Notes: a model not told the origin generated them from the sequence alone. Positions 2,959 to 27,380 are shown, counted from the stretch's first letter. The stretch is DNA of 64,000 nt from an uncultured Dehalococcoidales bacterium (GCA_964453525.1 CAYVOV010000003.1:2099-66098), one strand, 5' to 3'. A program made the numbers and translations.

Positions 2959-3939
2959 TCAACCCAATCCCAACCCCTCGACGGGACTTGCTCCATTTCG
3001 GTGGGCCTGAATAGCCTCCTCTCGCTTTAAGCCTTGAGTATAACGCCGACTCATTGTCAGGTCCTCGTGTCTTAGAAACAACTGAAGCAAGAATGAGTCT
3101 TTGGCACCTCGGAGATATTGTAAGGCACTAGTGTGCCGAAGGCGATGAACTCTCCCTCGCCCGCTCACTCCAGCTCTTTTCTTTAGGGAAACAAATGACG
3201 AAGCTAATCCGCTGACTGTGAACTGCTTGCCTTCTTCAGTTACCCAAAGAGCGTCGCTTTTCGCACGACGCCTCCTTTCCAACAGATAGAGCCAGATAGC
3301 TTTGGCTGTCTTGGAGGAAAACGGACATATGCCTACCTTGTTACCTTTACCAATGACTCGAACCCACTTTTGCTCCAGATTGAGGTCTGCGAGGTTCAAA
3401 TTCACCTGCTCACTCAAGCGCAAACCCGAGTCGATAAAGAGCAGAAGCATAGCTTTATTGCGCAGTCCGATAAACCGCGAACCAGTCTTGATGTCAAGTT
3501 CACAAACGGCAAGAAACCGCTTCAGTTCGTCTTTCTCATAAGGCTGGACGGGTGGAGGCAGTGGAGCCTTAAAATGAATATCCTTGACAGGGCTTTCCTC
3601 AACGAGCCCTTCCTCAATTCCCCAGTTAAATAAGCGCCTTAGCGCTTTGTAGTAAGGCCATGCTGTGGACGGTTTAGACCTAGAAAACCTATGGCTGCCA
3701 TTACCTGCGATATACTCAATGTTTCTTGAACCAACCCAAGATAAAAACTCTCTGATTCGCCTAGCGTCTAAAAAGTTAACGCTATCAGGCCAGCTCTGGG
3801 ATTTTGCGTAGGATAAGAAATGTTTCAGTAACTTATAATAATATTCGTGCGTGCGGAGCGCACGTCCTTCAGCTTGGAGGGAAAAGAGAAATCCCTCCAC
3901 AAAATCTACTAGGCCGATTGCTTTGTCACTCTTTTTCAC
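2959..3939 (-). CDS. tyrosine recombinase/integrase (integrase C, left element)
   Basis: 326 aa. Catalytic signature LRLSE ... HRLRHTSA ... LFLRHEDLTMSRRYT (R..H..R..Y). The start lies 110 bp from the 45-bp tRNA-derived repeat. Confidence 0.85.
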   Translation of the reverse strand: MKKSDKAIGLVDFVEGFLFSLQAEGRALRTHEYYYKLLKHFLSYAKSQSWPDSVNFLDARRIREFLSWVGSRNIEYIAGNGSHRFSRSKPSTAWPYYKALRRLFNWGIEEGLVEESPVKDIHFKAPLPPPVQPYEKDELKRFLAVCELDIKTGSRFIGLRNKAMLLLFIDSGLRLSEQVNLNLADLNLEQKWVRVIGKGNKVGICPFSSKTAKAIWLYLLERRRRAKSDALWVTEEGKQFTVSGLASSFVSLKKRAGVSGRGRVHRLRHTSALQYLRGAKDSFLLQLFLRHEDLTMSRRYTQGLKREEAIQAHRNGASPVEGLGLG

Positions 3940-4044: not shown

Positions 4045-5058
4045 CTTCGTGGTGAGCCGCGGAGGACTCGAACCTCCAACCGGCTGATTAAGAGGCGGGC
4101 ACACACGCTCAAACAGCTTAACAAACTGAGTGTCTCTCAGCTAGCGGAGTTAAGCAGTTTAAGCAAGGCTTACATCTCACAGGTTAAGCATGGAAAACGC
4201 TCGCCATCCCCGAAACTGCTCGAGATACTGGACGAGTTAGAAAGGCCAAAGAAGCCAGACAAAGACTACCTTGAGATATTCCTGCAATCCCGCCAAGCAA
4301 GGGGAGTAAGCCCAAAAACACTCCGGTATTACCAGGAAAGATTGTCTAAATTTGTCGATAGGGTCGAGTATACTCGCGCCACAAGGCAGGACATCGAGGA
4401 ATTTTTGAATTCAATCCCTCCGAACCAGTATGGCCTTGGTAATCGACACGCAACTTACCGTGCACTGAGAGCATTCTATAGGTGGCTGAGTAGCGAGTAT
4501 GAGTTACCCAATCCAGTAGCTGGAGTAGCCGCACCAATACTGGGTAAACCCATACTGCCCAGTCTCACCAGAGATCAGGTCGAGCTACTGATTCAGCATG
4601 CTGAGACTACACGTGACAGAGCCATAGTGGCACTATTTACTGAGAGTGGCTTGAGACTATCTGAGCTGGTCAGTATTACTCCAGATAAAATAGACTGGGA
4701 GTCACACACAGTGCAGATACTGGGTAAAGGCCGGAAAGAAGCTTTAGCGCCTTTCGGTGAGTTAACTGAAAAATATCTCAAGTCTTGGCTTCAGCAACAC
4801 CAGCCCAACGGTAACATCTGGGGACTCAACGAGTGGGGAATCGCCTCTATGCTCAGGAGACTGGAGTCAGCTACTGGAATACGATGTAATGCGCACGCCT
4901 TCAGAAGAACCTTCGCCTGCCTTCTTCGCAAGGCCGGTGTGGACGTAATGACTATCAAAGACTTGGGCCGGTGGGAAAGCCTAGAAATGGTGCAGAGGTA
5001 TACTAGATCGGTGAGATTCCAAGATAGCATGAGATTCTACAAAGCGCCACTTTCTTAA
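4045..5058 (+). CDS. tyrosine recombinase (integrase A) lacking its start codon in the integrated state
   Basis: Frame 1 is open from 4045 to the stop at 5056-5058. It encodes an XRE-like HTH (SVSQLAELSSLSKAYISQVKHGKR), a core-binding region and a catalytic domain (RLSE, HAFRRTFA, LGRWESLEMVQRYT). The first ATG/GTG/TTG is TTG at 4342. It is about two-thirds identical by eye to the integrase at 22840-23745. Confidence 0.8.
   Translation, partial: LRGEPRRTRTSNRLIKRRAHTLKQLNKLSVSQLAELSSLSKAYISQVKHGKRSPSPKLLEILDELERPKKPDKDYLEIFLQSRQARGVSPKTLRYYQERLSKFVDRVEYTRATRQDIEEFLNSIPPNQYGLGNRHATYRALRAFYRWLSSEYELPNPVAGVAAPILGKPILPSLTRDQVELLIQHAETTRDRAIVALFTESGLRLSELVSITPDKIDWESHTVQILGKGRKEALAPFGELTEKYLKSWLQQHQPNGNIWGLNEWGIASMLRRLESATGIRCNAHAFRRTFACLLRKAGVDVMTIKDLGRWESLEMVQRYTRSVRFQDSMRFYKAPLS
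4050..4094. repeat. distal att direct repeat (copy of tRNA-Lys nt 32-76)
   Basis: tggtgagccgcggaggactcgaacctccaaccggctgattaagag is identical 45/45 to 27311-27355. Confidence 0.9.
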
Positions 5059-5238: not shown

Positions 5239-5934
5239 CTATAGATTGTTTGCGATTATAGGTAATTTATCCGCTAGCACTTTCTTATAATGTGGATTGC
5301 GATCACCAGTTGGCTCATGTGGTAGTGCGAGCCATACAAGTATATTATTGCCTACTACTAATTTAAAGGTTCCTTCACAGCAAAACTCTGCTAAGTTTTC
5401 TGGCATAGTGACATCTTGTGGTATAGCATAGGCGTGTCGAAGAACACGAAAGACAGGTTCACCAAGTGATATTAAAATGCAAGGTTGATATTTATTTACT
5501 ACACACTCCAGTTCTTGTTTACCGAATTCGACAAAGTAATAGTAAAGGAAACGCACCGTTTTCCAATCGTTCCTACTGCCATCTAGTTGAAAAAACTTAT
5601 TATGTAAGTAAAATTCAACCAAGGGATTATGAGCTAAATCCCGTGGTTTTTTAATAAAATAACGGTTTACTAAGTTCCAGGCTAGAATGCGCCTCCTGCT
5701 GAAGCCCAACGTTCTACAAATCTTACCGAATATGTATTTACTCAGTTGGCCAGACGTGTTATTTAAGTCCAGTACAGCAGGTATATACCTGGAACTTACT
5801 ATAGTGGGATCCTGACCTAAGAAAAGTACGTCAGCTGTTTTGCTTCCGCGGAACAACTCAGGGCTCCCCCGTTCAACAAGTAAATATTCTTGCATATTAA
5901 TTTCCGGTAGAAAGCTCATATAGTTTCTCCACAA
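5239..5934 (-). CDS. uracil-DNA glycosylase superfamily-like protein
   Basis: VLFLGQDPT (family-1-like GQDP motif), AWNLVNRYF, C-terminal LPHEPTG (HPS-like). An alternative ATG at 5895 lies 1 nt after the upstream stop. Confidence 0.5.
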   Translation of the reverse strand: MWRNYMSFLPEINMQEYLLVERGSPELFRGSKTADVLFLGQDPTIVSSRYIPAVLDLNNTSGQLSKYIFGKICRTLGFSRRRILAWNLVNRYFIKKPRDLAHNPLVEFYLHNKFFQLDGSRNDWKTVRFLYYYFVEFGKQELECVVNKYQPCILISLGEPVFRVLRHAYAIPQDVTMPENLAEFCCEGTFKLVVGNNILVWLALPHEPTGDRNPHYKKVLADKLPIIANNL

Positions 5935-7366
5935 TCCATATCATACCTTCGGTATCCCGACCGCAATACTTTTCCAGATCAATCATCACCTTTGCTCTGT
6001 CTTCCTCTGGTATTTCACCATAGTTGGCTGTAAGAAAGGATAAGCTAGCTACCTGGCCATCGGAAATATTCAAACCCTCGTATCCTTTGCCTGTTATTGC
6101 TGGAAGTACAGCCTTGAGTGATGCACTACCTTTCTGAGCGGGGTGATAATAATCAAATTTACTAAAAGGCTTTAGTAGGTCAACTAGCCGGTTGCATATC
6201 CGTTCAATCCAATCGTTATATTCAGGGAAAGCAGCTGCCATTTCCCGCAAACACCCCTCTTCAAATCCTTTGTTGTAGGCAATGATGCTCCCAGAATCCC
6301 CCAGTACCTTTCTAATCTCAGCAAGTAGACCAGGCCGTGGATCACCAGTATCATTTGTCAGGTACGAGTAGTGCACTGGCTCTGACTTTTCATCCCGGAC
6401 AACGTGTAAAGAATACTGGAATGGAACGTCTTGGTAAGGTTTTACTCCGTCAAACAGAGGTATTGCCGGCCCGATGGTCTCGAAATCGAGGTAATAAAGA
6501 GGGTATTCGAGTGAAGAGAGGAACTCTTTGATTCTTTCCTTGTCTACATGGGGCTCACTGCTTACAACAGCTGCCTTTTGAATAAGCTGCTTGCCGTTTA
6601 ATTTGTAGCTAACCGGTATTTCGCTAATGGTTGCTACACCATCGTTATACATTTCATACGCTTTCTTTCCACCCCAATATAGCGAGAAAATACTGTGTTC
6701 AGGTAGGTTTCCCCAGCAGTCTGTTAAAGGACACTCGTATGGATCTCGGCAGTACGGCCCGATTATCATTTCGGGACATACATCTTGGTTAATAATTTTT
6801 ATAATGCTATCTATTTTATCCTGTATATCTATGCTTGATTCATTTACTTTATCGGTAATGTCGTGGATATTAAAAAGGCCTTCTGGGTCTAACTCTCCTT
6901 CCCTGACGTACTGGTTATTGATTAGAGCCAAGTAACAATTCCTGATACTCAATCCGTACTGTACACAGCAATGGCGTTGAAAAGCCACGTCGTCGATATG
7001 GACTTTCTTGATATTGGTTGAACTCTTAACTTCGCATATGTTCCACTCATCTTCGCCGGCAGGAAAGAGGATATCCACCCTACAATAAAGCCCATCCGAC
7101 AAGATACCTGCTTCGAACAAAGGTTTTCTTTTACTCAGCATTTCCTTTGTCTTCTCTATGTTCTTTATAAAATCATCTTGAGGTATATAAATACCTCCAG
7201 GAAACAGTCTGTTTGCCAGATACCCGACTTCATGCCCTTGGTCGAATGTATACTGGGTAACTGCATCTGTTTCTGGTATTCGCTCCGGTTCATGGAACTG
7301 CATCCAGACGTACCTAGGGCACTGGAGACCGTTTAGATATTTCGATTTTGATAACAATAGAGACAT
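5897..7366 (-). CDS. DUF2779-like protein: N-terminal PD-(D/E)xK/Cas4-like nuclease with Cys cluster plus C-terminal DnaQ-like exonuclease
   Basis: LSKSKYLNGLQCPRYVW start. RVDILF..(14)..CEVKSS. Cys cluster CPEMIIGPYCRDPYECPLTDC. YYLDFETIGPAIP...PYQDVPFQYSLH. Confidence 0.7.
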   Translation of the reverse strand: MSLLLSKSKYLNGLQCPRYVWMQFHEPERIPETDAVTQYTFDQGHEVGYLANRLFPGGIYIPQDDFIKNIEKTKEMLSKRKPLFEAGILSDGLYCRVDILFPAGEDEWNICEVKSSTNIKKVHIDDVAFQRHCCVQYGLSIRNCYLALINNQYVREGELDPEGLFNIHDITDKVNESSIDIQDKIDSIIKIINQDVCPEMIIGPYCRDPYECPLTDCWGNLPEHSIFSLYWGGKKAYEMYNDGVATISEIPVSYKLNGKQLIQKAAVVSSEPHVDKERIKEFLSSLEYPLYYLDFETIGPAIPLFDGVKPYQDVPFQYSLHVVRDEKSEPVHYSYLTNDTGDPRPGLLAEIRKVLGDSGSIIAYNKGFEEGCLREMAAAFPEYNDWIERICNRLVDLLKPFSKFDYYHPAQKGSASLKAVLPAITGKGYEGLNISDGQVASLSFLTANYGEIPEEDRAKVMIDLEKYCGRDTEGMIWIVEKLYELSTGN

Positions 7367-7385
7367 TTTTCGCTTAGGAAAGAGG

Positions 7386-9581
7386 CTATTTAGTTAGTTT
7401 CCCTTTCCTTAACTTTCTACGTTTCTTTGTAGCTTTTGTCTTCTTGGTCTTGGGCATAAGGCTTGGATCCTCAAGAACAGCAGCTATTGTCCCAAACCAA
7501 TGAATATGCAGATAGTGAGCTCCACGTGTAGTCGCCAGATACAGTAATTTGTTATGAAGATCGGAACCAGTAAAATTGTTCTTACGGGCATTAGCTAATA
7601 TTACAGCATCATACTCTAGACCTTTAGAAAGATATATAGGGGAAACTGCCGTCTTGGTTCGTTCATAACCTGGCTTATCAAGCAGCATAGCGTCATCTAT
7701 GCCTTCCTTGCGAAGCTTCACTGCTAGTTGAGAAGCTTCACGTGATGTCTTACATAGTACAGCAATAGACTGAATTTCTTTGGTTTTCAAAGACCTGATA
7801 TCTTCTGCTATAGCTTTTACCATTTCTTTAGCGGATTTAGAACGTATCAGGAGAGGTTTCTCCCCATGGCGTTCGTAAGCAATGGCTTTAGGCAACCTGG
7901 GCGCCGTTAGCTTCAAAATTCGGTTTGCATATTTTGTTATCTCAGATGTTGTGCGATAGCTGATGCGGATATCTGTTCTGTGAGGACGCTCTTTAGAGAA
8001 TAATCCTTTTACTTCGCTCCAGTCCTTCATACCTCGATGGGGTAATAGACTCTGTCCAATATCACCAAGTATTGTAAATGATTTGTTAGCGGAATAAACG
8101 TACAAAAGCAATAGTTCAAGGGGTGAAACATCTTGAGCTTCATCTACAACTACGTGTTCAAATGAAGGATTACTCCGTCCCTTTCTGCTTCTTTCGTTAA
8201 TGCCGTTCAATAGATAATTCAAATAGCAAATTGCAGCTAGGTCTTCTAGTTTTAAACGTTTGGTCTTCCCTGATAATGCTTTGACGAAATAATCAGTTTC
8301 TTCTTCTGTAATGACACCTTTTGACATATTAAGCAGATAATCTCGATTTGATAAAAGTTTTAGGTAGGCATTTCTAAAGTCGAGTTCAGGCCAAAATTCA
8401 TCAAATTGACTTGTAATGGCTTTACGCCGTGAGTCATCTAACTTTGTTAATAATCCTCTTCTGAATTCTCGCTCAATATTCGATATAGCCATTCTACGTT
8501 GTTCATTAAGAGGTTGATTGCCCAATTCCTTGATTATCCTCCTGACTCTAGACCTACTAATGGTTACTACTCCGCTGACAATACTTGTAGAGTTGTTTAT
8601 GAATTCATTTCGCAGAGTCTGGACATACCTATCAAGAATATGCGCCATTTGGAGTGAAACCTTTTGTTTTGCTACCTTCACTTCCATGCCTAAGTCTTTT
8701 CTGGATCCCCTCAGCAATTTCTCAAGCAACTTGTCCTCAAATTGTCTTATGCGGCGAGGTAAAGTGCTGCGAAGCCACTCAGGAATAGTCATTTGCCTTA
8801 CTCTTTCAACGCCTAGACCTGGAAGCAAGTTAGAAACATATTTGAGAAATGCTCTACTGGGGCCAAAGAAGACAACCCTATTTGGTGAAATATCTAGGTC
8901 AAGTTCATTGAACGGTGATAGCAAATAAGCTATTCTATGAATACCTACTTCGCTTTTGCCGCTGCCTGCTACGCCTTGAATGATTAGAACTCGATATGGT
9001 GTTGATGCTATGAGTTCGTACTGCTCAGGCTGGATTGTAGCAACGATCTTCTTTAATTCAGTACCCTTTGACTCAGACAACTGCCGAGAAATTCGTGTTT
9101 GTTTAACAGGTGTTACCTTCTCTCCAGGTGGTAGTAAGGGGACTTCTACAACGTCTAGCAATGTAGATTGTTCAATCAATAATTCGCGTTTTAGATTAAC
9201 AACTACTTTAATTTTTCCAGATGGGCAGGTATACTCCCCGGCTAAAGGATTATAAAAAAGCTTACCTATAGGTGCCTGCCAATTAAAAACATAGTCCAGC
9301 GGAATGTGATACTCACCCAAATAGTAAGATTCAATATTGTCCTGAGTTGCCCCCTTTACAAAATCTATACGACCGAAATATGGACTTTGCCGGGCTTCTG
9401 ATAGATTCCGGATGTTCTCCTCTTTTTTCTGGCGCATGTCACGAGCAGCTTCACCAAACACAGGTGCTTCTTCTTTAGACATGCCTAGAAAGCGTTTATC
9501 TTCTTCTATAACCTCGTCAATACGTGATATACACCGCTCTAGGTTATTCTCTTCTTCAGTATATATATTTTCCTCTGTCAT
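7386..9581 (-). CDS. UvrD-like SF1 helicase with HelD-like N-terminal domain
   Basis: Walker A GVAGSGKSE, motif II VVVDEAQD, N-terminal SPYFGRIDF and NWQAPIGKLFY. The preferred start is ATG 9581, preceded by aggagga. The track ORF extends to 9728. Confidence 0.8.
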   Translation of the reverse strand: MTEENIYTEEENNLERCISRIDEVIEEDKRFLGMSKEEAPVFGEAARDMRQKKEENIRNLSEARQSPYFGRIDFVKGATQDNIESYYLGEYHIPLDYVFNWQAPIGKLFYNPLAGEYTCPSGKIKVVVNLKRELLIEQSTLLDVVEVPLLPPGEKVTPVKQTRISRQLSESKGTELKKIVATIQPEQYELIASTPYRVLIIQGVAGSGKSEVGIHRIAYLLSPFNELDLDISPNRVVFFGPSRAFLKYVSNLLPGLGVERVRQMTIPEWLRSTLPRRIRQFEDKLLEKLLRGSRKDLGMEVKVAKQKVSLQMAHILDRYVQTLRNEFINNSTSIVSGVVTISRSRVRRIIKELGNQPLNEQRRMAISNIEREFRRGLLTKLDDSRRKAITSQFDEFWPELDFRNAYLKLLSNRDYLLNMSKGVITEEETDYFVKALSGKTKRLKLEDLAAICYLNYLLNGINERSRKGRSNPSFEHVVVDEAQDVSPLELLLLYVYSANKSFTILGDIGQSLLPHRGMKDWSEVKGLFSKERPHRTDIRISYRTTSEITKYANRILKLTAPRLPKAIAYERHGEKPLLIRSKSAKEMVKAIAEDIRSLKTKEIQSIAVLCKTSREASQLAVKLRKEGIDDAMLLDKPGYERTKTAVSPIYLSKGLEYDAVILANARKNNFTGSDLHNKLLYLATTRGAHYLHIHWFGTIAAVLEDPSLMPKTKKTKATKKRRKLRKGKLTK

Positions 9582-9660
9582 AAATCCTTCCTCCTTTGTA
9601 CCACCCTTTAAACAGCATATGATATAAATAAGTCGAATTATCCTGGATAAAGTAAGTTTC

Positions 9661-10470
9661 TTACCATCCTCCGACTTCTTGCCACATTTCTTCGGCTGCT
9701 TCATCAATCCAATCTGGGAACATTTCATCTAAGTAGTCCAATATATCAGCACCAATCTGTTCCTGAAGATCAGTTGCCGATTTAGCAGCCCTTAAGGCAT
9801 CTGGTCCACAATAGAGTCGCTGATTATTAGTGCCTTTGCACCAATTTTCAATTTCATCCAAGACTGTTTGGAGAGACCTGCATGACCATGCTGCTAAATT
9901 TTGAACCGCGCGACAATCTATCTCGCTTAGGCATTTAGCAGCTCCTCTAGCTGTTGCTTCGTATATTAATGGCAATGGGAGCCTTTGAGGCTCGATCACT
10001 GTGATTCCCCAGAGTGCTGCGTAATGACGGCAATCATCACGTATGTTATGACCAGATAGAAGGAATCTATTCATCGGAATCTTTGCGTAGAATTGACTAC
10101 TACCCTGGAGAAAATCAAGACTTTTACTATTGAAAATTAGAAGTTCATTTTTTTCTAATTTGGTTGTTAGGTGTTTCAGTTCCCAGTGGGTCACGCAAGT
10201 AACGTCTCTTGTACCGCCATCTACCTCATGTCTAAGTCCCGAAGCACTACGCTGCTCTGCGAGGGAAGTAGAGCCTGCTTTCTCGCTAAGACGGATGCCG
10301 CGTCGCTCACAAAGGTCGTAAAAGAGGTCCTCGAAATTACGACCTCTCTCATATCCATGACCAGATATTCCCCCAACCTCTACAATTGCATAAACTCTAA
10401 CTATTAGGTCAAGGATATTCTCTGGAAATAGGTTGGAATAGTCCTTTACAATTGGCTTCTTCCACCACAT
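9661..10470 (-). CDS. predicted PD-(D/E)xK fold nuclease, family unknown
   Basis: 269 aa. FEDLFYDLCERRG ... HEVDGG-(13)-WELKH fits the E...D...ExK restriction-endonuclease-like core. Confidence 0.45.
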   Translation of the reverse strand: MWWKKPIVKDYSNLFPENILDLIVRVYAIVEVGGISGHGYERGRNFEDLFYDLCERRGIRLSEKAGSTSLAEQRSASGLRHEVDGGTRDVTCVTHWELKHLTTKLEKNELLIFNSKSLDFLQGSSQFYAKIPMNRFLLSGHNIRDDCRHYAALWGITVIEPQRLPLPLIYEATARGAAKCLSEIDCRAVQNLAAWSCRSLQTVLDEIENWCKGTNNQRLYCGPDALRAAKSATDLQEQIGADILDYLDEMFPDWIDEAAEEMWQEVGGW

Positions 10471-10481
10471 CCCTGAACCCT

Positions 10482-11792
10482 CTAAATAATGCGCTCGTCA
10501 GTAGCAATTTCCTCGGTTTCTTCATCTTCGGAAGTCGTTGGAAGCAAACGCTCAAGCTTTGGTAGAACGAACACTTCGTCTAATCGTGGTGCTTTATTAG
10601 TGTTACCAAGCTCTAATAGCCTATTTAGTATGCGCAAAAACTCCCTTGGATTAGGTCTTGTAGCTTCCCATGCTATTTTTAGAGACGCTTCCGTAAAGGG
10701 CGAAATACTATCTGTACGAGTGGGAAGCGCTACGGTTGAGTCATTGAGCATTCGTTCTGCAAGAAGATGCGCCGAACTAAACTCCTCGAGACCTTTAAGC
10801 ACAACTACAACAGGCTCATTAAGAGGATTGTCATAGTCTAGAGAAGGAAGGTCTTCGTGTTGCCACGCGTTTCTAAGGCGGTAATATGCACTGGGATGTA
10901 GCTGGAACACAAAGGATGCCCGGGAGGAAAATGGTTCAGCCTCAATTAACGCATCTCTAATGAATTTCACATTTCGCTCTATTTTGGAGGTTCCAGACAT
11001 TGATGTAAAATCCTCTACTTGGTCAATAAAGAAAGTAAAATGCTCCATTCCTGCTAATTCAGAGAACACAACAAGAATCTGCAGATATTTGAGTCCATTA
11101 CGATCATGATGCCAAGTGCCAACATCAGAAGCAAGGAATCTTTCTAATGCCTCTGTATCTGGTGTAGCAAGATGGTACATGAAATCTTCAAGCAAATTCC
11201 TGATGTCGAGAGTTACTGCCAGCTTCCGGAACCTATCCCTAATGGCTTCGACGATGGCAGTATCTTCACTACCTTCGACTGCCTTCCCAGCACTCACGAG
11301 CTTTGCTGCAGCTCGTTCTCTCAGTTTTGTGTGCGTACTTATGCCAGCATTATCCCGCGTCCGGAGAATAAATCGTGCCAAATTGAAAGCAGCGGCATCA
11401 ATACTCAAAATACCACCATAAGCCTTAGCAACAAATGTTACATATCCAGCAAGCACAGGATTAGCATTAGCGTCCTCATCTGAAATACCCAACGATGTTA
11501 AAGTCGATTTTCCGAAGTCTTGATTTATCTTTTTTGCTTCTTCGGCCATAAGCGTAGATTTTCCAAACCCGCGGGCCGACGGATCACCACTGGACACAGA
11601 CCAAACAGCACCAATAAGAGGCTGCCCATTCTCAAGTGGTGCTAATATGAACTTACGTAAAAATTCATTTCGCTGAAGCCCAAACATTTCGGGCACATAT
11701 ATGATTTCCGTGTCCTCTCCATAAGTGGCTTGACTAGGGAAAGGATTTTTCTTTAAACCGTATTGGATTTCATAATAAGATTTAATTGCCAT
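10482..11792 (-). CDS. AAA/ORC-ExeA-like P-loop ATPase with deviant Walker A
   Basis: 436 aa. N-terminal YGLKKNPF, SARGFGKST (Walker A-like), FTFFIDQVEDF (Walker B-like). Confidence 0.5.
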   Translation of the reverse strand: MAIKSYYEIQYGLKKNPFPSQATYGEDTEIIYVPEMFGLQRNEFLRKFILAPLENGQPLIGAVWSVSSGDPSARGFGKSTLMAEEAKKINQDFGKSTLTSLGISDEDANANPVLAGYVTFVAKAYGGILSIDAAAFNLARFILRTRDNAGISTHTKLRERAAAKLVSAGKAVEGSEDTAIVEAIRDRFRKLAVTLDIRNLLEDFMYHLATPDTEALERFLASDVGTWHHDRNGLKYLQILVVFSELAGMEHFTFFIDQVEDFTSMSGTSKIERNVKFIRDALIEAEPFSSRASFVFQLHPSAYYRLRNAWQHEDLPSLDYDNPLNEPVVVVLKGLEEFSSAHLLAERMLNDSTVALPTRTDSISPFTEASLKIAWEATRPNPREFLRILNRLLELGNTNKAPRLDEVFVLPKLERLLPTTSEDEETEEIATDERII

Positions 11793-11794
11793 TT

Positions 11795-13009
11795 TTAACC
11801 TCCATCAGAAATTGATAGTTTTATTAATCCAATTCGATGACCTCTTACTAGAACATAGCTTTCTCCTTGCGGTGGTGGGGTAAACGGCAACTCGGTATAA
11901 ATAGTCACCCCTGATTCTTCACGGTGTTCAATTATCCGTTCTAAACAAAGTGAGAATATTAAAGGTTGTATCCTCAAGTCCGTGCAAACGAGTGCCCGAA
12001 GAGGATAGATATCGATATATGTTTGTAATGAGCCGGACAATTTTTTATATGCAGATATTAATGACATCGTAAAATCATTTGAAACGTAAGACTGTCCATG
12101 ATGGGTAACTCCGGAAACAGAAGCCTCAGCGTTAAAAGACGGATCAGGCATGAAATCGCACGTCGAAAATATAACTCGTCCTGTAAAATCAGGATGAGAA
12201 GATGTTATAGCCACGCTGTAGAAATCTTGCGAACAACTAAATATATGCTGAAAAGTAACTGTATCAAAAAATAAGCCTTCTGATTTCAGGATGGCAGGCA
12301 CTACAATATTATCCTCTACTGTATCTACAATTTTCTTTACGTCAATATTTCGCATAGATGAAACACGATTCAGATACTCAACTTGTTCATCTACCTTTTC
12401 GTTGAATATGACAATTTTCTCCGCAGGGAAATCGATGGTTTTAAGCCTTGTAGTGCAGCTTTCGATTATTCTATTAGCCAACAGATCAGGATCAATAGGG
12501 AATTTCAGGCTTTGCCCAAGCTGTTTAATACTTGTTATATCAGGAATATACATTGGCGACTTGAGTAAACGTATAGTGAACGCTCTAAAGTAGGGATGAT
12601 TGTTCATCCATAAAAGTAATATAGAATCAAACGCTTTTCCACGACTATCCTTATATAAGCGTGCTATCTCCATACCTTTCTCTGTGACTTTGCAGGGCGT
12701 TTCTTTTAATCTTTCTACCTCGGACCTTTTACGAGGTAAAGGTCCCACTGTTATTAATCTAAGTTTATTTAGGTCTGTAAGAGCATCACGTGCTACTGTC
12801 CACATAACTTCACGTGATGGAGGAGCATGTCGTTTCGATGAGCTGTGAAGAGAACGGCGTACTTCATCAAATGTACAAGTGGATTTGGATAAGGAAATAA
12901 AACGGAGAGAATCAAGAAGCTGATCTATCCGTATCCTGGGGATAGAGTCTTTAATAATATCTTTATCCTGCATACAAATATTATATAATAATATGGGAGC
13001 GTTTGTCAA
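11795..13009 (-). CDS. hypothetical protein with N-terminal winged-helix-like segments
   Basis: 404-aa ORF (alternative start at 12973, MQDKDII). LNKLRLITVGPLPRKRSEVERLKETPCKVTEKGMEIA resembles a wHTH. First gene of the six-gene operon. Confidence 0.4.
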   Translation of the reverse strand: MTNAPILLYNICMQDKDIIKDSIPRIRIDQLLDSLRFISLSKSTCTFDEVRRSLHSSSKRHAPPSREVMWTVARDALTDLNKLRLITVGPLPRKRSEVERLKETPCKVTEKGMEIARLYKDSRGKAFDSILLLWMNNHPYFRAFTIRLLKSPMYIPDITSIKQLGQSLKFPIDPDLLANRIIESCTTRLKTIDFPAEKIVIFNEKVDEQVEYLNRVSSMRNIDVKKIVDTVEDNIVVPAILKSEGLFFDTVTFQHIFSCSQDFYSVAITSSHPDFTGRVIFSTCDFMPDPSFNAEASVSGVTHHGQSYVSNDFTMSLISAYKKLSGSLQTYIDIYPLRALVCTDLRIQPLIFSLCLERIIEHREESGVTIYTELPFTPPPQGESYVLVRGHRIGLIKLSISDGG

Positions 13010-13052
13010 TACCGTTTCATTAATTTTTGTGAATTTCTATTAATCTGGAAGG

Positions 13053-13081
13053 TTGACTTTTATCCGACAACTGAATATTAT
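13053..13081 (+). promoter_or_regulatory. sigma70-like promoter for the HTH/Hma-type operon
   Basis: TTGACT (13053-13058), 17-bp spacer, TATTAT (13076-13081). GGAGAG RBS lies before ATG 13115. Confidence 0.4.
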
Positions 13082-13114: not shown

Positions 13115-13336
13115 ATGCCAGTTCTAGAAGATTATATAAGCGTTAATGAAGCTGCTGAGTTTCTCAAAGTTCATCCGGGCACTGTCAAGAGGCTTTGTCG
13201 TGAACGCAGGTTATCAGCCCACAAAGTCCATAATGGATGGCTAATCCACATTAACGATGTGCAGTCCTTTGCTAAGGAATATAACGGCCGGAGGGGAAGG
13301 CCAAGCAACATGGATATTAATAAAAGGGTAATTTGA
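13115..13336 (+). CDS. excisionase-family/MerR-like HTH DNA-binding protein
   Basis: ISVNEAAEFLKVHPGTVKRLCRERRLSAHKVHNGWLI matches the HTH_17/excisionase pattern. Its stop overlaps the helicase start (TGATG). Confidence 0.7.
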   Translation: MPVLEDYISVNEAAEFLKVHPGTVKRLCRERRLSAHKVHNGWLIHINDVQSFAKEYNGRRGRPSNMDINKRVI

Positions 13337-16300: not shown

Positions 16301-16881
16301 CTGCATTAGCACGCCGTCGTGCTGATGACCTCACTGACCGACTCCAGGCACGCATGAAAGAGCTCGAATTAGAAAGGCAACTGTCACCCCGGCCACCAGT
16401 GGTTGTCGGTGGTGCTCTTGTAGTTCCAGAGAAAGTGTTAGCACACATGCTAAATCGTCCTGTGCCAGACCGTGGGGGCGTAGAAAAAGATGTGGTAGAA
16501 GAGCTTGCTATGAAGGCGGTAGAAGAAGCCGAGAGAAAGACTGGGCGAATTCCTACTCGTATGCCGGTCAATAACCCTGGTTACGATATCGAATCAAGAG
16601 ATCCTGAGACTGGGCATCTACATTTTATTGAGGTAAAAGGACGCCAGGCTGATGCCGACATCGTACATATTACGAAGAACGAATGGCTTGTCGCCTTGAA
16701 CAAGAGGGGCATGTTTATTCTAGCTATTGGACGTGTTCGTGATAACCAAGTGGAGTCATTGCATTATATCCGTGACCCGATGGCCCGCGCTGTAGCCGGT
16801 GATCTGACTTTTGGTGTAACGGGTATTGATCTGAATATTAATGAACTACTGAAGTTGGAGACTGTGGAGGCTATACGATGA
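13333..16881 (+). CDS. SNF2-family helicase with C-terminal DUF3883 (PD-(D/E)xK-like) domain; Hma-type helicase
   Basis: DDPGAGKT, VVDEAHKM, LTATPHHG, ATDAAGEGINLQ, QRFGRIHRLGQ. C-terminal GYDIESRD...FIEVKGR...ITKNEW. Confidence 0.85.
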   Translation: MMAKLEELVEGALVEGIIADSPATVIHTKWFGEQAIELTYKNEQTGTVSNRLLYRSDEDALRLIETTSALVFDGDGETFRLASEANRIRLAYLFDPRLAVHVSQVDPLPHQIAAVYEEMLIRQPLRYLLADDPGAGKTIMAGLFIKELILRGDLERCLVVCPANLAEQWQDELSEKFKLHFEIVGREQIESSLTINPFLEKPFVISRIDLLKPRRDKNGELDESNLDRLKQVEWDLLVVDEAHKMSASFVGGDVKLTARYRLGQILCDPQHSRHIVFLTATPHHGKEEDFQLFLALLDKDRFEGRFRTGVHRVDTSDIMRRMLKEELVDFEGKPLFPERRAYTVNYDLSPLEARLYADVTEYVRTEMNRADELAEVGSHRRTVIGFALTVLQRRLASSPEAIYQSLRRRRERLEKRIEEERHKKQAAELDLTSGLRAIDEEEMDDLPDRETEELEDQVVDLASNARTIAELELEIIRLKELEKLAKEVRQSDTDRKWEELRDLLLNRAEMFDQKGRRRKLIIFSEHRDTLRYLASKVRNLLGDPTAIIEIHGGMGRVERRKAQNTFINDPTAEILIATDAAGEGINLQRAHLMVNYDLPWNPNRIEQRFGRIHRLGQREVCHLWNLVAYQTREGAVFRRLFEKLESQRQALKDKVFDVLGRVFDEIPLRNLLMDAIRYGDQPEVRARLEERIDELMSPEHYRELIERFALATDTIDTTRLQSLMEDMERAEALRLQPHFIASFFTDAFQRLGGSIRERESQRYEIRRVPQEIIRRARQIRRGIPLVHRYERIVFEKERINVDEKPPAEFVAPGHPLLDATIDLTLERHSQLLRRGALLVDPREDGPNTSRALLFIQHEIHDGRVDKQGRNRTASRKLHFVEISQNGESQDAGAAPYLDYRSLNDDEGKAVNQLLQQAWLQKDIEEQAKAYAIEFLVPRHFEEVKAYRESLVLKTMAAVKERLTKEIQYWDKRAEELKAQELAGKKPRINSALARRRADDLTDRLQARMKELELERQLSPRPPVVVGGALVVPEKVLAHMLNRPVPDRGGVEKDVVEELAMKAVEEAERKTGRIPTRMPVNNPGYDIESRDPETGHLHFIEVKGRQADADIVHITKNEWLVALNKRGMFILAIGRVRDNQVESLHYIRDPMARAVAGDLTFGVTGIDLNINELLKLETVEAIR

Positions 16882-19610
16882 CCTACCGCAAGAAGTTAAT
16901 AGAGGTAGCCATGCCTCTTGATGCTATTAACAACGCATCTGCTCACGAAAAAGCAGTGCGGCGTGGTCATCCATCCGCGCTCCATTTGTGGTGGGCGCGA
17001 AGACCTCTCGCTGCTTGTAGAGCAATACTCTTTGCCTCATTGGTTGATGATCCCAGTAATGACTTGCCCGAAAATGAGGCAAATAAGGAGCGAGAACGCT
17101 TGTTCCGTATACTTGAAGACCTTGTGAGATGGGAAAACATTAATAACGAAACGGTAATCGGTATGGCGAGGGAAGAGATAATTAGGAGTACGAGAGATAA
17201 TCCTCCTTCACTCATAGACCCCTTTTGTGGTGGAGGTGCTATACCGCTGGAAGCTCAACGCCTGGGATTAGAAGCCTATGCCTCTGACTTGAATCCAGTG
17301 GCTGTTCTGATTACCAAGGCACTTATTGAAATACCAGCTAAGTTTGTCGGAAAACCTCCGGTGAATCCGGATTCAAAGAAAGGTACCGGTAGTACTGCTG
17401 GCTGGAGAGGTGCTTCAGGTTTGGCAGCTGACGTGCGTTTCTACGGCCAATGGATGCACAATGAGGCGTGGAAGCGTATTGGTCATCTGTATCCCAAAGG
17501 ACCAAATGGGGAGACAGTCATCACTTGGCTATGGACAAGAACAGTAAAATGCCCCAATCCTGCATGTGGTACTCAAATGCCTTTAGTGCGGTCCTTCTGG
17601 CTATCCACGCAGAAAGGCAAAAGGGCTTGGGTAAAACCTATCTTGGATTTAGATAACAAGACAGTGCGGTTCGAAACGAGTATAAGTGACAGTGATGCAC
17701 CACAAGGAACAGTCAACCGTTTGGGAGCTCGCTGTATCCTATGTGGTACGGCAGTATCCTTTGACTACATTAGAGCAGAGGGTAAAGCAGGATGCATAAA
17801 TAGGCGGTTAATGGCAATGGTTGGTGAGAACCAACACGGACGTATCTATTTGTCTCCAGACAATAATCACGAAAGTATCGCGGTTTCTGCTGATCCTGAC
17901 TGGATTCCCGATACAGAGTTACCAGAACAAGCGCTCGGATTTCGTGTTCAATTATATGGTATTTCGAGGCATGCAGAACTTTTCACAAGCCGTCAGCTTG
18001 TATTCCTCTCTGTGCTATGTGATCTAGTAGAGGAGGCCCATCTTCAGGTTATTGAACACTCTGGGAGAGATGAAGAATATGCTAATGCGGTTACCACTTA
18101 CTTAGGTCTAACAGCAAGTAAAATAGTTGATTCATGTAATGCATTCTGTCGCTGGCGGTCCGATCATGCTACAGCAACCAACCTGTTCGCTCGTCCCACA
18201 TTGTCCATGCTATGGGACTTTGCCGAGGTAAACCCATTTCAATTTGTCAACTACGCAGATCTTGCATCTAAGAGTGCAGCCGTATTGGAAACACTCAGCT
18301 TAGGGAAGTTGCATAGTGTACCAGCTGGAGCAGTCAGTCAACTGGACGCCACACAAGCGCTTCCAGTTTCTATACCAGCTCTCATTGCCACTGACCCTCC
18401 ATATTACGATAATATCGGTTATGCAGACCTCTCTGATTTCTTTTATATATGGCTCCGTCGCATGTTGAAGAGCATTTATCCTGAATTGTTTTCAACCTTG
18501 CTAACACCAAAGAATCAAGAGCTTATAGCATCACCATACCGATTTGACGGAAGCAAACAGAAAGCAAAGGAGCATTTCGAAAATGGACTCGAGAAAAACT
18601 TTGTGCTTATGCGAACAAAGGCTGCCTCGGAGTATCCAGTTACACTCTATTATGCTTTCAAGCAAGCTGAGAATGACAATGGTAGCGACGCAAATAGTAA
18701 ATCAGAAGTTCCTACTCTTGCACAGGCATCCACAGGCTGGGAGACCATGCTTCAGGGCCTGTTAAGTGCTGGCTTTCAGATTACGGCTACTTGGCCAATG
18801 AGGACAGAGCTAGGTACGAGGATGCGTGGGATTTCGTCTAATGCCCTTGCTTCATCAGTCGTACTTGCTTTTAGACTCAAGCAGAAAGATGCGCCAATTG
18901 CTACACGAAGGGAATTTTTGGCTGCCTTGCGAAAGGATTTACCTCAAGAATTGAGAGTACTCATGAATGGTCGGGTAGCCCCGGTTGATCTAGCGCAGGC
19001 ATCCATTGGCCCAGGAATGGCCATCTTTTCTCGCTACAGCAAGGTACTAGAGGCGAATGGTTCAGCCATGACGGTGAGAACCGCTCTTCAGGAGATTAAT
19101 TATTTCCTAGAAGACTACCTAGCACAGCAGGAGGGAGACCTAGACGTAGAGAGCCAGTTCTGCGTTGTTTGGTTTCAACAATATGGCTCTAGAGAAGGCC
19201 CCTTTGGAGAGGCGGATGTGCTGTCAAGAGCTAAGGATGTCAGTGTTGATGGTCTGGCTCGTCTTGGTCTGGTCGATGCTGAAAGAGGTAAAGTACATCT
19301 AACCCTGCGAGAGAGTTATGAAGATGATTGGGATCCCAGAAATCAGTCGCGGATCACTGCTTGGGAAGCTTGCCAACGCCTAGTGTGGAGCCTGAATGAG
19401 AACGGGGAGCAGGAAACAGGTCGCTTGGCAAGACGATTGGGTGGTGTAGCTGAGCAAGCAAGACAACTGGCATATCGTCTCTACGGTATTGCTGACCGTA
19501 AGGGATGGGCTGAAGAGGCTTCCGGCTATAACGCTTTAGTATCTTCTTGGTCTGAAATACAAAAGGCAGCCGCTGCTGCCGCTGAGGAAGCTCAAGGGAG
19601 GATGATGTGA
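16878..19610 (+). CDS. DUF1156-family DNA methyltransferase (N6A/N4C type) with Zn ribbon
   Basis: N-terminal EKAVRRGHPSALHLWWARRPLAACRA. DPFCGGGAIPLEA (SAM site). CPNPACG...CILCG. IATDPPYYD motif IV. ATGA overlap with the helicase stop. Confidence 0.85.
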   Translation: MTYRKKLIEVAMPLDAINNASAHEKAVRRGHPSALHLWWARRPLAACRAILFASLVDDPSNDLPENEANKERERLFRILEDLVRWENINNETVIGMAREEIIRSTRDNPPSLIDPFCGGGAIPLEAQRLGLEAYASDLNPVAVLITKALIEIPAKFVGKPPVNPDSKKGTGSTAGWRGASGLAADVRFYGQWMHNEAWKRIGHLYPKGPNGETVITWLWTRTVKCPNPACGTQMPLVRSFWLSTQKGKRAWVKPILDLDNKTVRFETSISDSDAPQGTVNRLGARCILCGTAVSFDYIRAEGKAGCINRRLMAMVGENQHGRIYLSPDNNHESIAVSADPDWIPDTELPEQALGFRVQLYGISRHAELFTSRQLVFLSVLCDLVEEAHLQVIEHSGRDEEYANAVTTYLGLTASKIVDSCNAFCRWRSDHATATNLFARPTLSMLWDFAEVNPFQFVNYADLASKSAAVLETLSLGKLHSVPAGAVSQLDATQALPVSIPALIATDPPYYDNIGYADLSDFFYIWLRRMLKSIYPELFSTLLTPKNQELIASPYRFDGSKQKAKEHFENGLEKNFVLMRTKAASEYPVTLYYAFKQAENDNGSDANSKSEVPTLAQASTGWETMLQGLLSAGFQITATWPMRTELGTRMRGISSNALASSVVLAFRLKQKDAPIATRREFLAALRKDLPQELRVLMNGRVAPVDLAQASIGPGMAIFSRYSKVLEANGSAMTVRTALQEINYFLEDYLAQQEGDLDVESQFCVVWFQQYGSREGPFGEADVLSRAKDVSVDGLARLGLVDAERGKVHLTLRESYEDDWDPRNQSRITAWEACQRLVWSLNENGEQETGRLARRLGGVAEQARQLAYRLYGIADRKGWAEEASGYNALVSSWSEIQKAAAAAAEEAQGRMM

Positions 19611-22839: not shown

Positions 22840-23745
22840 TTATGTTTTCTCGTTTAAGAGAGAAGCCGGATAAAACTTCAGGCTATCATCAAAATCTACT
22901 GAACGGGTATACCGCTGCACCATTTCCAGGGATTCCCATCGTCCTAGATCTTTAATGGTCATGGTGTCTACTCCGGCTTTCCGAAGCAGACAGGCAAAGG
23001 TTCTCCTTAATGAATGAGCGTTACAGGTTATGCCTGTCTCTTTCTCAAGCCTGCGGAGCATCGAAGCGATTCCCCATCCAGTCAGCCCCCAAATGTTGCT
23101 ATCGCCAGGTTGGTACTCCTGTAGCCAGGCTCTCAGGTATTTTTCTGTCAGGTCACCGAATGCTGCATAAGCTTCCTTCCTCCCTTTTCCCAGTATTCGA
23201 ATAGTCCTGTTTGACCAGTTGATATGTCCAAGTAGAATATTCGCAAGCTCCGATAACCTTAATCCGCTCTCAACGAACAGGGCAACAATGGCTTTATCCC
23301 TTACGGAAGCCGCTTTTTCGATAAGGATAAGCACCTGCTCTTTTACTAACGCAGGAAATATAGGTTTACCCAGGATTGGAGCTGGCATACCCTCCATTGG
23401 ATTCGGAATGCCGTACTCACGGTTCAACCATTTATAGAGAGCTTTGATTGCCCGGTATGAAGCATGACGATTTCCCAATCCGTATTTATTAGGAGGAATA
23501 GTATTCAAGTACCGTTGTATATCTTGGCGGGTGGCATGCAGGATATCGACAGCACGGACTAACTTTGATAAGCGCTCACGATAATACCTGAAGGTCTTCG
23601 GGCTTACCCCCATTGATTCCCGCGATTGCAGGAATAACTCTAGGTAGTCCTTGTCCTCCACTTTGTGGCGCTTTAAATAGTCTCTTAGCGACATATAACG
23701 CTCTTGCAATAATGTTTGTGCCAACCGTGAGCTTACATAACGCAC
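22840..23745 (-). CDS. tyrosine recombinase (integrase B), intact
   Basis: 301 aa with its own ATG. RLSE, HSLRRTFA, LGRWESLEMVQRYT. Paralog of integrase A. Confidence 0.9.
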   Translation of the reverse strand: MRYVSSRLAQTLLQERYMSLRDYLKRHKVEDKDYLELFLQSRESMGVSPKTFRYYRERLSKLVRAVDILHATRQDIQRYLNTIPPNKYGLGNRHASYRAIKALYKWLNREYGIPNPMEGMPAPILGKPIFPALVKEQVLILIEKAASVRDKAIVALFVESGLRLSELANILLGHINWSNRTIRILGKGRKEAYAAFGDLTEKYLRAWLQEYQPGDSNIWGLTGWGIASMLRRLEKETGITCNAHSLRRTFACLLRKAGVDTMTIKDLGRWESLEMVQRYTRSVDFDDSLKFYPASLLNEKT

Positions 23746-24862: not shown

Positions 24863-25585
24863 GTGACACCGAAGAAAAGCGGGAAAAAAGGAATATACGA
24901 ATTTATGCCGTCCAGTATAGTGGAAATCCGCAAGCGCCTGAAATTATCTCAGGCTGCTATGGCGGATCTTTTGGATGTTCCTCCTAATACCCTTTCGCGG
25001 TGGGAGACCGGAGCCACTGTCCCCGACGCCAATTATCTTGCGCTAGTATACTCAGTAGCAAAAGAACACAATATTACACCGGTTTTCTTCGGCATACGTC
25101 GGGAATCGCAGCAGACTCAAAAATCTCGCTATAGATTAATCGTAATGTGGGATTTTCAGACCCTAGGAGTACCTGCAGACCAGGTTACTCAAGCTGACAC
25201 CTGGATTAGAACAGAAGTGCAAAGGAGATTCAGTGGGGTAAGCTTTCAGTTATTAAAAGCGTTTACGTACCCATATCAATCAAACGCGGCAGATATACTG
25301 GAAGACCTTGGTTGGCGTGTGTGGGAAGATGACACCGGCATAAGAGATGAAATCATTGACCAGTCACGTAGCGATAGCGGGCAGGAACCCACTGGTACTA
25401 TACTGGTGTTAATTACGCGGGACAATGGTTTTACTGACCTAATAGATGACCTGAAAGCACAGGGTGTACGGGTTTACCTGGTAGCTCCAGAATACTCGAG
25501 CCAAGAACTTATTGAGAAGGTAGGCCGCAGGCGCTGGATTCAATGGGAAAGAAGTGACTTTCCACTTTTGCCTTTACTATATTGA
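24863..25585 (+). CDS. XRE-family HTH fused to NYN/LabA-like (PIN-related) domain
   Basis: LKLSQAAMADLLDVPPNTLSRWETG (HTH_3). RLIVMWDFQT ... ILVLITRDNGFTDLIDDLKAQGVRVYLV (NYN pattern). Confidence 0.6.
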   Translation: MTPKKSGKKGIYEFMPSSIVEIRKRLKLSQAAMADLLDVPPNTLSRWETGATVPDANYLALVYSVAKEHNITPVFFGIRRESQQTQKSRYRLIVMWDFQTLGVPADQVTQADTWIRTEVQRRFSGVSFQLLKAFTYPYQSNAADILEDLGWRVWEDDTGIRDEIIDQSRSDSGQEPTGTILVLITRDNGFTDLIDDLKAQGVRVYLVAPEYSSQELIEKVGRRRWIQWERSDFPLLPLLY

Positions 25586-25635: not shown

Positions 25636-26250
25636 ATGAGTGTCATAGATAACTTAGACTATAAGTCACCACTTATGCCGATTAAAGGATTATCTGAGTT
25701 AATCCCGGGCCCTTTAAGCAATTCTATAAGCAATTTTCGTAAGTATATCGCTTTAGCTAAGAGTAACATCATAGTAGGATCCTCTAAGATAGTACCGGGA
25801 GAACTAGGTTATCTTGCTAATAGAGATCTCCACAAAGGTGAAGAGGTATTTACAGTATTTGGTACGATAATTGGCCATCAAACAGAACAGCACTCTATTC
25901 AAATAGGATACGGAGTCCACATTGACCCACATACATATGGCGGACGTTACGTAAACCATCACTGCGAAGGAAATCTTATTATTAGATGGGATAATAGAGG
26001 GCTGCACCATTTCATAGCTTCGAAAGATATAAAGGTGGGCCAGGAAATATCCTATTCATATTGGAGAACCGAGCTTGAATGGAGTGAACCCGCTTCGGAG
26101 AATAAAGTTCGGTGTTCGTGTGGTTCACCAAATTGTACTGGTAATATATTATCCTTCCGTCAACTCTCACGTATGGAGAAAAAAAAGGCTTTTACGGAAG
26201 GTGGTATTGCGTGGTACCTATTTCAAGAGCTTGGAAGACCTGCAACATAA
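25636..26250 (+). CDS. SET-domain protein (lysine methyltransferase fold)
   Basis: GRYVNHHCEGN (NHSCxPN-like), EISYSY, post-SET CSCGSPNCTG. Confidence 0.7.
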   Translation: MSVIDNLDYKSPLMPIKGLSELIPGPLSNSISNFRKYIALAKSNIIVGSSKIVPGELGYLANRDLHKGEEVFTVFGTIIGHQTEQHSIQIGYGVHIDPHTYGGRYVNHHCEGNLIIRWDNRGLHHFIASKDIKVGQEISYSYWRTELEWSEPASENKVRCSCGSPNCTGNILSFRQLSRMEKKKAFTEGGIAWYLFQELGRPAT

Positions 26251-27270: not shown

Positions 27271-27380
27271 AAGGAGAACCGTTAAAAATGAGGAAAATTA
27301 GCCTCAAAAATGGTGAGCCGCGGAGGACTCGAACCTCCAACCGGCTGATTAAGAGTCAGCTGCTCTGCCAGTTGAGCTAG
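27271..27380 (+). other. detached 5' module of integrase A (RBS, ATG, 8 codons) reading antisense through tRNA-Lys
   Basis: AGGAG at 27272-27276, ATG at 27288. MRKISLKN then enters the 45-bp repeat in frame. In the integrated state the frame stops at TAG 27378-27380 (30 codons). Confidence 0.7.

Follow-up and report, generated by a model that had tools for sequence, protein, structure and literature searches.

A three-gene cassette encoding an ORC/Cdc6-like ATPase, a predicted PD-(D/E)xK nuclease and a winged-helix protein is a candidate defence system in an uncultured Dehalococcoidales bacterium

Operons that combine an Orc/Cdc6 ATPase with a restriction endonuclease, REase(-ASCH), and a DndG-like protein with three domains of the winged helix-turn-helix (wHTH) type have been predicted to be anti-invader systems, and the SspB–SspC pair consists of a multi-wHTH DNA-recognition protein and a Cdc6/ORC-clade ATPase (Rakesh, Aravind and Krishnan, NAR 2024, PMC10853773). 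Auxiliary nucleases gather around BREX and BREX-related loci (PMC12839542), and Hma-embedded systems have been described in a preprint (Payne et al.). Here, we describe a cassette of three genes, designated A, B and C in the order of their transcription, which was found in a DNA stretch of 64,000 nucleotides (nt) from an uncultured Dehalococcoidales bacterium (GCA_964453525.1 CAYVOV010000003.1:2099-66098). This whole stretch is called the window, and all coordinates are given in it unless a related locus is named. The cassette consists of three closely spaced open reading frames (ORFs) on the minus strand (9661-13009). The literature was searched for the diversity of BREX, for systems embedded in Hma and for Dnd/Orc-Cdc6 systems; it offered thematic precedents and no description of this family. 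The trio is a good candidate for a new immune system. The reading that we favour, with modest confidence, is that of an autonomous, horizontally mobile and self-regulated system in which an NTPase would control a nuclease directed against foreign DNA, in the manner of restriction and without a methyltransferase.

The three genes behave as one unit. Searches with hidden Markov models (HMMs) of the three proteins in the ORFs of about 65 related loci placed gene A upstream of gene B in 36 of 37 loci and gene C downstream of it in 39 of 39, the order being A-B-C wherever the contig allows. The grouping of the three genes, which had been suggested from the window alone, is thus borne out. The spacing is tight (2 nt between A and B, 11 nt between B and C), and the whole cassette occupies 3.4 kb. 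Clustering of all neighbouring ORFs in the related loci gave no fourth conserved gene family, and about 50 loci have the trio but lack the helicase, DUF2779 and uracil-DNA glycosylase (UDG)-like genes that follow it in the window. These three genes are therefore regarded as local neighbours, and a six-gene operon that includes them is ruled out.

An earlier reading, made from the window sequence without database searches (the sequence-only reading), had proposed that a 79-nt gap before the helicase gene allows the trio to be a unit separate from the three downstream genes. The length of the gap is exact, with the helicase ATG at 9581, and the separation is supported by the loci that lack these genes. 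However, the minus strand of the gap showed nothing that resembles a promoter or a terminator, so co-transcription of the helicase with the trio is possible in this genome. The gap holds the ribosome-binding site of the helicase gene, AAAGGAGG, and a perfect palindrome, TTATCCAGGATAA (9639-9651). In the closest relative, locus L006 (L numbers denote the related loci), DNA homology extends from 13023, just outside the promoter of the cassette and just beyond the first of its two upstream repeats, through the gap to 9527. It ends 54 nt into the helicase gene, of which only a stub of 18 codons is left there.

The three ORFs are judged to be genuine genes, and their origin by chance is dismissed, since each protein has 168–188 homologue clusters among 5.8 billion proteins at E ≤ 1e-3 (168 for A and 188 for C) and the motif residues are invariant in alignments of 40–45 sequences. 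In these alignments, the mean column identity amounts to 75% in B, 66% in C and 53% in A, which makes A the fastest-evolving component of the trio. The homologues are all named 'hypothetical', with the exception of one evidently spurious Joint Genome Institute (JGI) label. Scans of A, B and C against Pfam, PADLOC, NCBIfam and PHROGs gave no meaningful family match, and searches of the PDB sequences with single sequences and with profiles gave nothing. At E ≤ 0.1, the HMMs of PADLOC-DB v2.0.0 gave no match to A, B or C; the same run found the adjacent Hma genes with E = 0. The PADLOC, NCBIfam and Pfam runs that missed the trio recognised its neighbours cleanly (Hma, the HelD-like helicase and DUF2779). 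These sequence and profile searches found no characterised family for the trio proteins. Hence, the statement of the sequence-only reading that the trio has no recognisable family stands for sequence families; it does not stand for the fold of B, which appears to fall into the ORC/Cdc6 AAA+ clade.

One gene call had to be changed. Gene A was initially read as an ORF of 404 amino acids (aa) starting with a TTG codon, but this TTG, at 13009, opens the −35 box of a promoter (TTGACA, 18 nt, TATAAT), and gene A therefore begins at the ATG at 12973. This start agrees with the lengths of almost all homologues and with an independent gene call on an identical contig. The motifs quoted earlier for B and C are all present at the reported places in the translation of the window.

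Protein B is the most conserved member of the trio. In an alignment of 41 sequences reaching down to 17% identity, residues P17, G75, K78, D257, H299 and W310 are invariant throughout the family, and E260 and R279 are nearly so. As had been observed from the sequence, the P-loop of B does not conserve the first Gly/Ala of the GxxxxGK[ST] pattern; position 72 varies. In the Walker B motif, Gln occupies the usual position of the catalytic Glu, and a Glu follows two residues on. The sequence DQVED is retained in most of the divergent-clade copies examined, Azospirillum having DQVEN and L072 having DQLED in its place. The invariant Lys78 and Asp257, together with the Gln in the position of the catalytic Glu, suggest that B, instead of being a fast motor, acts as a slow ATP switch, as a loader or as a clamp of the type of ORC, TnsC or BrxC.

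The AlphaFold2 model of B has a predicted local distance difference test (pLDDT) of 86 and a predicted template-modelling (pTM) score of 0.86. Its best match in the PDB, found with Foldseek, is the archaeal ORC2/Cdc6 protein 1w5t (E 5e-4; TM-score 0.40/0.44 over the full length), and human ORC4, RdrA, BrxC (9zdx) and TnsC are among the further matches. The model thus supports the 'ORC-style' call made earlier from the N-terminus, albeit with modest TM-scores, and suggests that B belongs to the ORC/Cdc6 AAA+ clade at the level of fold. The order of the core strands in the model is that of a P-loop NTPase, with the motifs on strands 60–65 and 251–257. A six-helix insert (residues 131–246) can be noted between strands 113–119 and 251–257, the second and third core strands; it may correspond to the helical insert that marks initiators, and R279 may be an arginine finger. 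The C-terminal region is helical and is not assigned to a winged helix. The family of B is small, with 196 representatives found among 1.84 billion by exhaustive profile search. B itself has no PF10923 or PADLOC BrxC/BrxD match at E ≤ 0.1, and a profile–profile comparison with one BrxC sequence gave nothing.

Protein C is predicted to be a PD-(D/E)xK nuclease from the conservation of its motifs. Residues E47, H81, E82, D84, E97, K99, H100, K107 and N108 are invariant in 41 homologues, E47 lying upstream of the HEVD and WELKH motifs. The core described in the sequence-only reading as E..D-(13)-ExK was recovered with its residues E47, D84 and E97-x-K99, all invariant; the spacing between D84 and E97 is 12 residues, not 13. 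The E/D/ExK residues are also kept in clades with 21–25% identity. L072_C retains HEID...EAK, and the analogue C' of a clade with four genes, which is homologous to C (hhalign probability 94.8%), has these residues as ETD...EAK. A search of Pfam with C gave nothing but a spurious F-box associated match, with no ASCH domain seen at the sequence level, and a profile search of the PDB sequences gave no match.

The hints of a winged helix in A that had been seen in the sequence are supported by the AlphaFold2 model (pLDDT 89.3, pTM 0.87). The N-terminal wHTH (residues 16–96) matches structures of the MarR, PadR and ZitR type in the PDB with Foldseek probabilities of 0.82–1.0 over about 95 columns. 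The middle of the protein is helical in the model, and a small region rich in beta strands lies at the C-terminus, together with at least one more helix-helix-helix-strand-strand unit. No full-length structural match to A was found by Foldseek in the PDB, and the BFVD library of viral structures gave nothing beyond local wHTH matches. Residues D9, P12, R39, R62, D63, H126, Y128, R176, D237, R326 and E371 are kept in all clades; they include several arginines of the winged helix and form no obvious catalytic set. The possibility that A is an enzyme was rejected, since its STCDF and HHG motifs, kept in the core clade, are lost in the divergent clades, and A is treated as non-enzymatic.

A conserved element upstream of gene A is new in this analysis. 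The promoter of the cassette matches the sigma-70 consensus at 12 of 12 positions, and a tandem direct repeat overlaps its −35 hexamer. Alignment of the upstream DNA gave the repeat consensus AAACGnTC(t) + AAACGnTCCCA. This bipartite repeat is present in 27 distinct upstream segments from other loci, in which the coding DNA is only about 65% identical, and lies 31–59 nt, mostly 42–47 nt, before the ATG of A. It has a single match in the 64 kb of the window against 0 expected. The conserved part is the repeats and not the −35 hexamer, as several loci carry CTGGAC or CCAGAA instead of TTGACA. The variable base n tends to match between the two repeats (T/T in 6, A/A in 2, C/C in 10, G/C in 8 and A/T in 1 of the 27 segments, which are not phylogenetically independent). 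Other direct repeats precede the first gene in divergent clades: L057 has two copies of GCGAGAGATCCCATTTAAT, and L070 has two of TTCTCGCC. The simplest reading of the repeats is that they are a candidate operator for a DNA binder encoded by the cassette, most plausibly the winged helix of A; they also appear to mark the 5' edge of the mobile unit. Their co-variation from clade to clade gives a handle on the DNA specificity of the winged-helix subunit. The ATG of A lies 6 nt past the −10 box in the window and 6–9 nt past a −10-like box in the relatives, which makes a leaderless mRNA probable.

Two further observations concern this region. The start of gene A carries a TTTATCC(T/G).. motif (12962-12984), which recurs 97 nt away (13059-13081) at a promoter-like site on the plus strand before an HTH_17 ORF; the motif is related to the palindrome TTATCCAGGATAA of the 79-nt gap. 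In L052 (8820-10447 of that locus), a decayed cassette was found in which A is split, B ends after about 148 aa and C is absent, with the repeat element intact at 8776.

Named hosts of the trio belong to Chloroflexota, Myxococcota, Planctomycetota, Rokubacteria and Alphaproteobacteria and include a delta-proteobacterial metagenome-assembled genome (MAG). Identities of 60–66% across Chloroflexota, Myxococcota, Planctomycetota, Rokubacteria and delta-proteobacterial MAGs point to the horizontal spread of the trio. Copies derived from isolates are present in Dehalococcoides mccartyi VS (DhcVS_244-246) and Pyxidicoccus. A genome contig scan with a single protein as the query gave one locus. No copy was found in phages, either by the scan of IMG/VR with B or by tblastn against 50,697 phage genomes, and among 72,556 plasmid records only one, a 1.8-Mb chromid, has a homologue.

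The arrangement of the genes varies in distant relatives. In Azospirillum brasilense (37% identity), the order is B-A-C, and L072 and L073 keep A-B-C at about 25% identity. Loci L056–L060 carry four genes, B'-A-B-C', with C' of 231–237 aa. In these loci and in L063, the two ATPase paralogues flank the homologue of A, and both have Walker A and DQVED intact. A distant B-like ATPase, P0384, is followed in L074 (160-3906) and L075 (402-4147) by an OLD-family ABC ATPase–TOPRIM nuclease, with no C; a weak A-like fragment lies upstream of P0384 in L075, and a NERD protein also follows in L074. These loci, which represent one cluster on two contigs, may be an effector swap.

A defence-island setting was found in nearly every long locus. 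In the window, a complete Hma defence system lies divergent from the trio, with an HTH_17 ORF preceding it. Downstream of the trio on the same strand, the helicase, the DUF2779/Cas4-like gene and a weak UDG-like gene (5239-9581) may form a separate candidate module. Three tyrosine-recombinase genes bracket the defence genes, and a tRNA-Lys gene lies nearby, which suggests that the region of the trio and Hma is an integrated genomic island. Elsewhere, the trio stands directly upstream of brxA, with AbiEi/AbiEii and a type 1 BREX operon as neighbours (L069), and beside a helicase–PLD pair and a DUF499/DUF1156 system (Pyxidicoccus). Its neighbours in D. mccartyi VS are Dcm-UvrD/PDDEXK-Vsr, ArdC and an integrase, and SNF2-NOV_C adjoins it in one long locus. 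PglW (L019), DruE-like protein with DpdE, a type IIG restriction-modification system, a type III methyltransferase and TmtA were found in further loci. Another 94 neighbours include AbiEii and GmrSD_N as well as plain housekeeping genes. The coordinates of the features are collected in Table 1.

Table 1. Positions of the cassette genes, their motifs, the upstream element and the neighbouring features in the 64,000-nt window.
Feature	Coordinates	Strand	Remarks
Tandem direct repeat, AAACGGTATTGAC / AAACGCTCCC	12995-13017	-	Operator-like; repeat starts 13 nt apart; overlaps the -35 hexamer
Promoter	12980-13009	-	TTGACA-18 nt-TATAAT; sigma-70 consensus match 12/12
Gene A	11795-12973	-	392 aa; multi-winged-helix, predicted DNA-binding adaptor and autoregulator
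Gene B	10482-11792	-	436 aa; ORC/Cdc6-clade AAA+ ATPase by predicted fold; deviant P-loop xARGFGK[ST], 'DQVED' Walker B
YGLKKNPF motif of B	11739-11762	-	Residues 11-18; N16, P17 and F18 invariant in the core clade
Walker A of B, SARGFGKST	11553-11579	-	Residues 72-80; R74, G75, F76, G77, K78, S79 and T80 invariant; 72 varies
Walker B of B, FFIDQVED	11010-11033	-	Residues 254-261; D257, Q258, V259, E260 and D261 invariant in the core clade
Gene C	9661-10470	-	269 aa; N-terminal half predicted PD-(D/E)xK nuclease; conserved C-terminal region with an invariant GGW end
Catalytic motif of C, HEVD-(12)-ELK	10171-10230	-	HEVD, residues 81-84 (10219-10230); WELKH, residues 96-100 (10171-10185)
79-nt spacer	9582-9660	-	Separates C from the HelD-like helicase; 3' boundary of the trio, outside the cassette
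HelD-like UvrD-family helicase	7386-9581	-	NCBIfam HelD_BACSU, E 1.7e-93, under its cut-off
DUF2779/Cas4-like protein	5897-7366	-	Pfam
HTH_17 (Xis/AlpA-like) ORF	13115-13336	+	73 aa; precedes Hma
HmaA	13333-16881	+	PADLOC, E = 0
HmaB	16878-19610	+	PADLOC, E = 0
HmaC	19612-22413	+	PADLOC, E = 0
Tyrosine-recombinase genes	2959-3939, 4342-5058, 22840-23745		Bracket the defence genes
HTH_3 protein	24863-25585	+	C-terminal NYN-domain match; just outside the island
SET-domain protein	25636-26250	+	Just outside the island
tRNA-Lys(CTT)	27311-27386

The view that the trio may be a sensor/effector module, already put forward in the sequence-only reading, draws on the domain content and the defence-island context. 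The following mechanism can be proposed. The promoter of the cassette would drive its transcription, probably into a leaderless mRNA, and the repeats over this promoter would serve as an operator at which a DNA binder of the cassette, most likely the N-terminal winged helix of A, may hold expression low. A and B would form an ATP-dependent complex for DNA recognition, with B as the slow switch, loader or clamp that its motifs and fold suggest. This complex would recruit C or license it, in an ATP-dependent manner, to cut the recognised DNA. The three proteins would probably dock through conserved terminal elements, TDxIPR at the N-terminus of A, DDRL at the C-terminus of B and GGW at the C-terminus of C. 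A would thus be both the specificity subunit and the repressor; its place as the fastest-evolving of the three proteins fits the former role. Modified DNA, intermediates of replication or entry, and a phage or plasmid protein are the candidate targets.

More tentatively, we propose that the trio founds an uncatalogued defence family. In such a family, an ORC/Cdc6 ATP switch with a Walker-B Gln and a fast-evolving multi-wHTH specificity subunit may load on foreign DNA and license a PD-(D/E)xK nuclease, the same wHTH subunit repressing the operon through co-evolving repeats. At least four architectures might be counted in it: A-B-C, B-A-C, B'-A-B-C and possibly A-B followed by OLD/TOPRIM. If the defence role is confirmed, a further defence system would be added to those built on an ATPase of the ORC/Cdc6 type, the clade that also holds BrxC, BrxD, RdrA and TnsC. 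How ATPases of this clade recognise DNA and license effectors is still poorly understood. The cassette is suited to testing, as it is small and self-contained, has its own promoter and operator-like repeats, and is available in copies from isolates.

The best surviving alternative, in our opinion an unlikely one, is that the trio is an accessory or back-up module for BREX-like ATPase–methylase systems (Hma, DUF499/DUF1156 or BREX), for example one that senses their inhibition or serves as their nuclease arm. The trio does adjoin Hma in the window, DUF499 and DUF1156 in Pyxidicoccus, brxA in L069 and PglW in L019. Two distant relatives of B, P0332 and P0342, score 22.0 and 19.3 bits on the PF10923 profile BrxC_BrxD, close to its cut-off of 22.2, and the clustering of auxiliary nucleases at BREX loci and the embedding of systems in Hma can be counted on the same side. 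However, most loci have no BREX-like or Hma-like neighbour, and the clustering of neighbouring genes gave no conserved partner. In addition, the trio has a conserved promoter and operator-like repeats of its own, and its orientation to the neighbouring system varies, being divergent in the window.

It is also possible, with a low probability, that the trio serves integrative or plasmid-like mobile elements as a module for their maintenance or replication, in which B would be an initiator acting with A on iteron-like repeats and C a nuclease for nicking or resolution. The direct repeats beside the operon, in three or four copies in some loci such as L026 and L028, recall iterons or the archaeal origin-recognition boxes beside cdc6. 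The neighbours in some loci include ParA/CbiA, RepB, a MobL relaxase, a RepB primase, integrases and ParE/Phd, and the copy in the window lies in an island between three tyrosine recombinases, near the tRNA-Lys gene. Nevertheless, the single homologue on a chromid among the plasmid records and the lack of copies on phage genomes or IMG/VR contigs argue against such a role, and the overlap of the repeats with the −35/−10 region is a placement typical of an operator. No AT-rich unwinding element with flanking inverted boxes was noticed by the repeats, with no search aimed at one. To our knowledge, there are no bacterial replicons with ORC-type initiators. Since the surrounding elements differ at every locus, the trio behaves like their cargo, not like a part of the backbone.

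The weakest alternative is a domesticated Tn7-like targeting module without a transposase, in which C would correspond to TnsA, B to TnsC and A to TniQ/TnsD. TnsA is about 270 aa long and has a PD-(D/E)xK domain at its N-terminus, TniQ and TnsD use wHTH domains, the FGLxxxPF-type N-terminus is common to ExeA and TniB-like AAA_22 ATPases, and TnsC structures are among the fold matches of B (ranks 13–16, E 0.04–0.07). Nonetheless, this origin is very improbable, because there is no Pfam match to TnsA, TnsC, TniB or TniQ, about 50 loci show no DDE transposase as a consistent neighbour, the trio is not flanked by terminal inverted repeats, homology between the loci stops at the promoter on one side and just past gene C on the other, and the fold of B is matched more closely by the ORC/Cdc6 proteins than by TnsC. 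A transposon bounded by terminal repeats is dismissed on account of the same absence of flanking repeats and the same limits of homology.

Several points weigh against the favoured reading of the trio as an autonomous, nuclease-based defence system. The cassette has no methyltransferase or other evident marker by which self could be told from non-self. The assignment of C to the nucleases comes from motif conservation, the fold matches of B are modest (TM-score of about 0.4), and A as a whole matches no more than the kleisins MukF and JetA, weakly and without significance (E 7e-3 to 0.2, TM-score of about 0.2). The repeats could be iterons instead of an operator. Some loci are situated among housekeeping genes or beside genes for ParA, RepB, relaxase and primase, and these latter neighbours are equally compatible with a role in the upkeep of mobile elements. 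No mention of the isolate homologues DhcVS_244-246 was found in the literature searched. Finally, the family is rare, and selection for defence cannot be read from its abundance.

The domain logic of the trio, an NTPase with a nuclease and a DNA binder, is familiar from predicted conflict systems; the family itself is a rare one. By the tests run, it appears not to be BREX, McrBC, Ssp, a Tn7-like element or any system or candidate of PADLOC v2. The closest parallel in domain logic is provided by the Orc/Cdc6, REase-ASCH and triple-wHTH operons, which share it fully, and both groups reside in mobile, defence-linked neighbourhoods. In contrast to these operons, C has no ASCH domain by Pfam at the sequence level, A has no match to the DndG, DptG or SspB models of PADLOC, and FokI is outside the top 50 fold matches of A. 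As the operons were described in one sentence without checkable accessions (PMC10853773), the trio may or may not belong to them.

BREX resembles the trio in the ATPase, since BrxC and BrxD (PF10923) are ORC/Cdc6-clade ATPases of defence loci, as B appears to be. However, the trio contains no PglZ, PglX, BrxA, BrxB or BrxHI, the BREX genes adjoin it in a minority of loci only, and B differs from BrxC and BrxD in two signatures of its own family, the Walker B 'DQVED' and the N-terminus GLxxNPFP. The type IV system McrBC offers a likeness in the proposed logic, that is, an AAA+ NTPase that licenses a separate PD-(D/E)xK nuclease with no methyltransferase. The trio has no McrB (AAA_5) or McrC match in Pfam or PADLOC, B appears to fall into the ORC/Cdc6 clade and not with McrB, and the trio adds a third, obligatory multi-wHTH subunit. 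The pairing of A and B, in turn, resembles that of SspB and SspC of the Ssp phosphorothioation system. The trio differs from the latter in having no PADLOC match to SspB or SspC and neither SspA nor SspD, a predicted nuclease taking the place of the modification apparatus.

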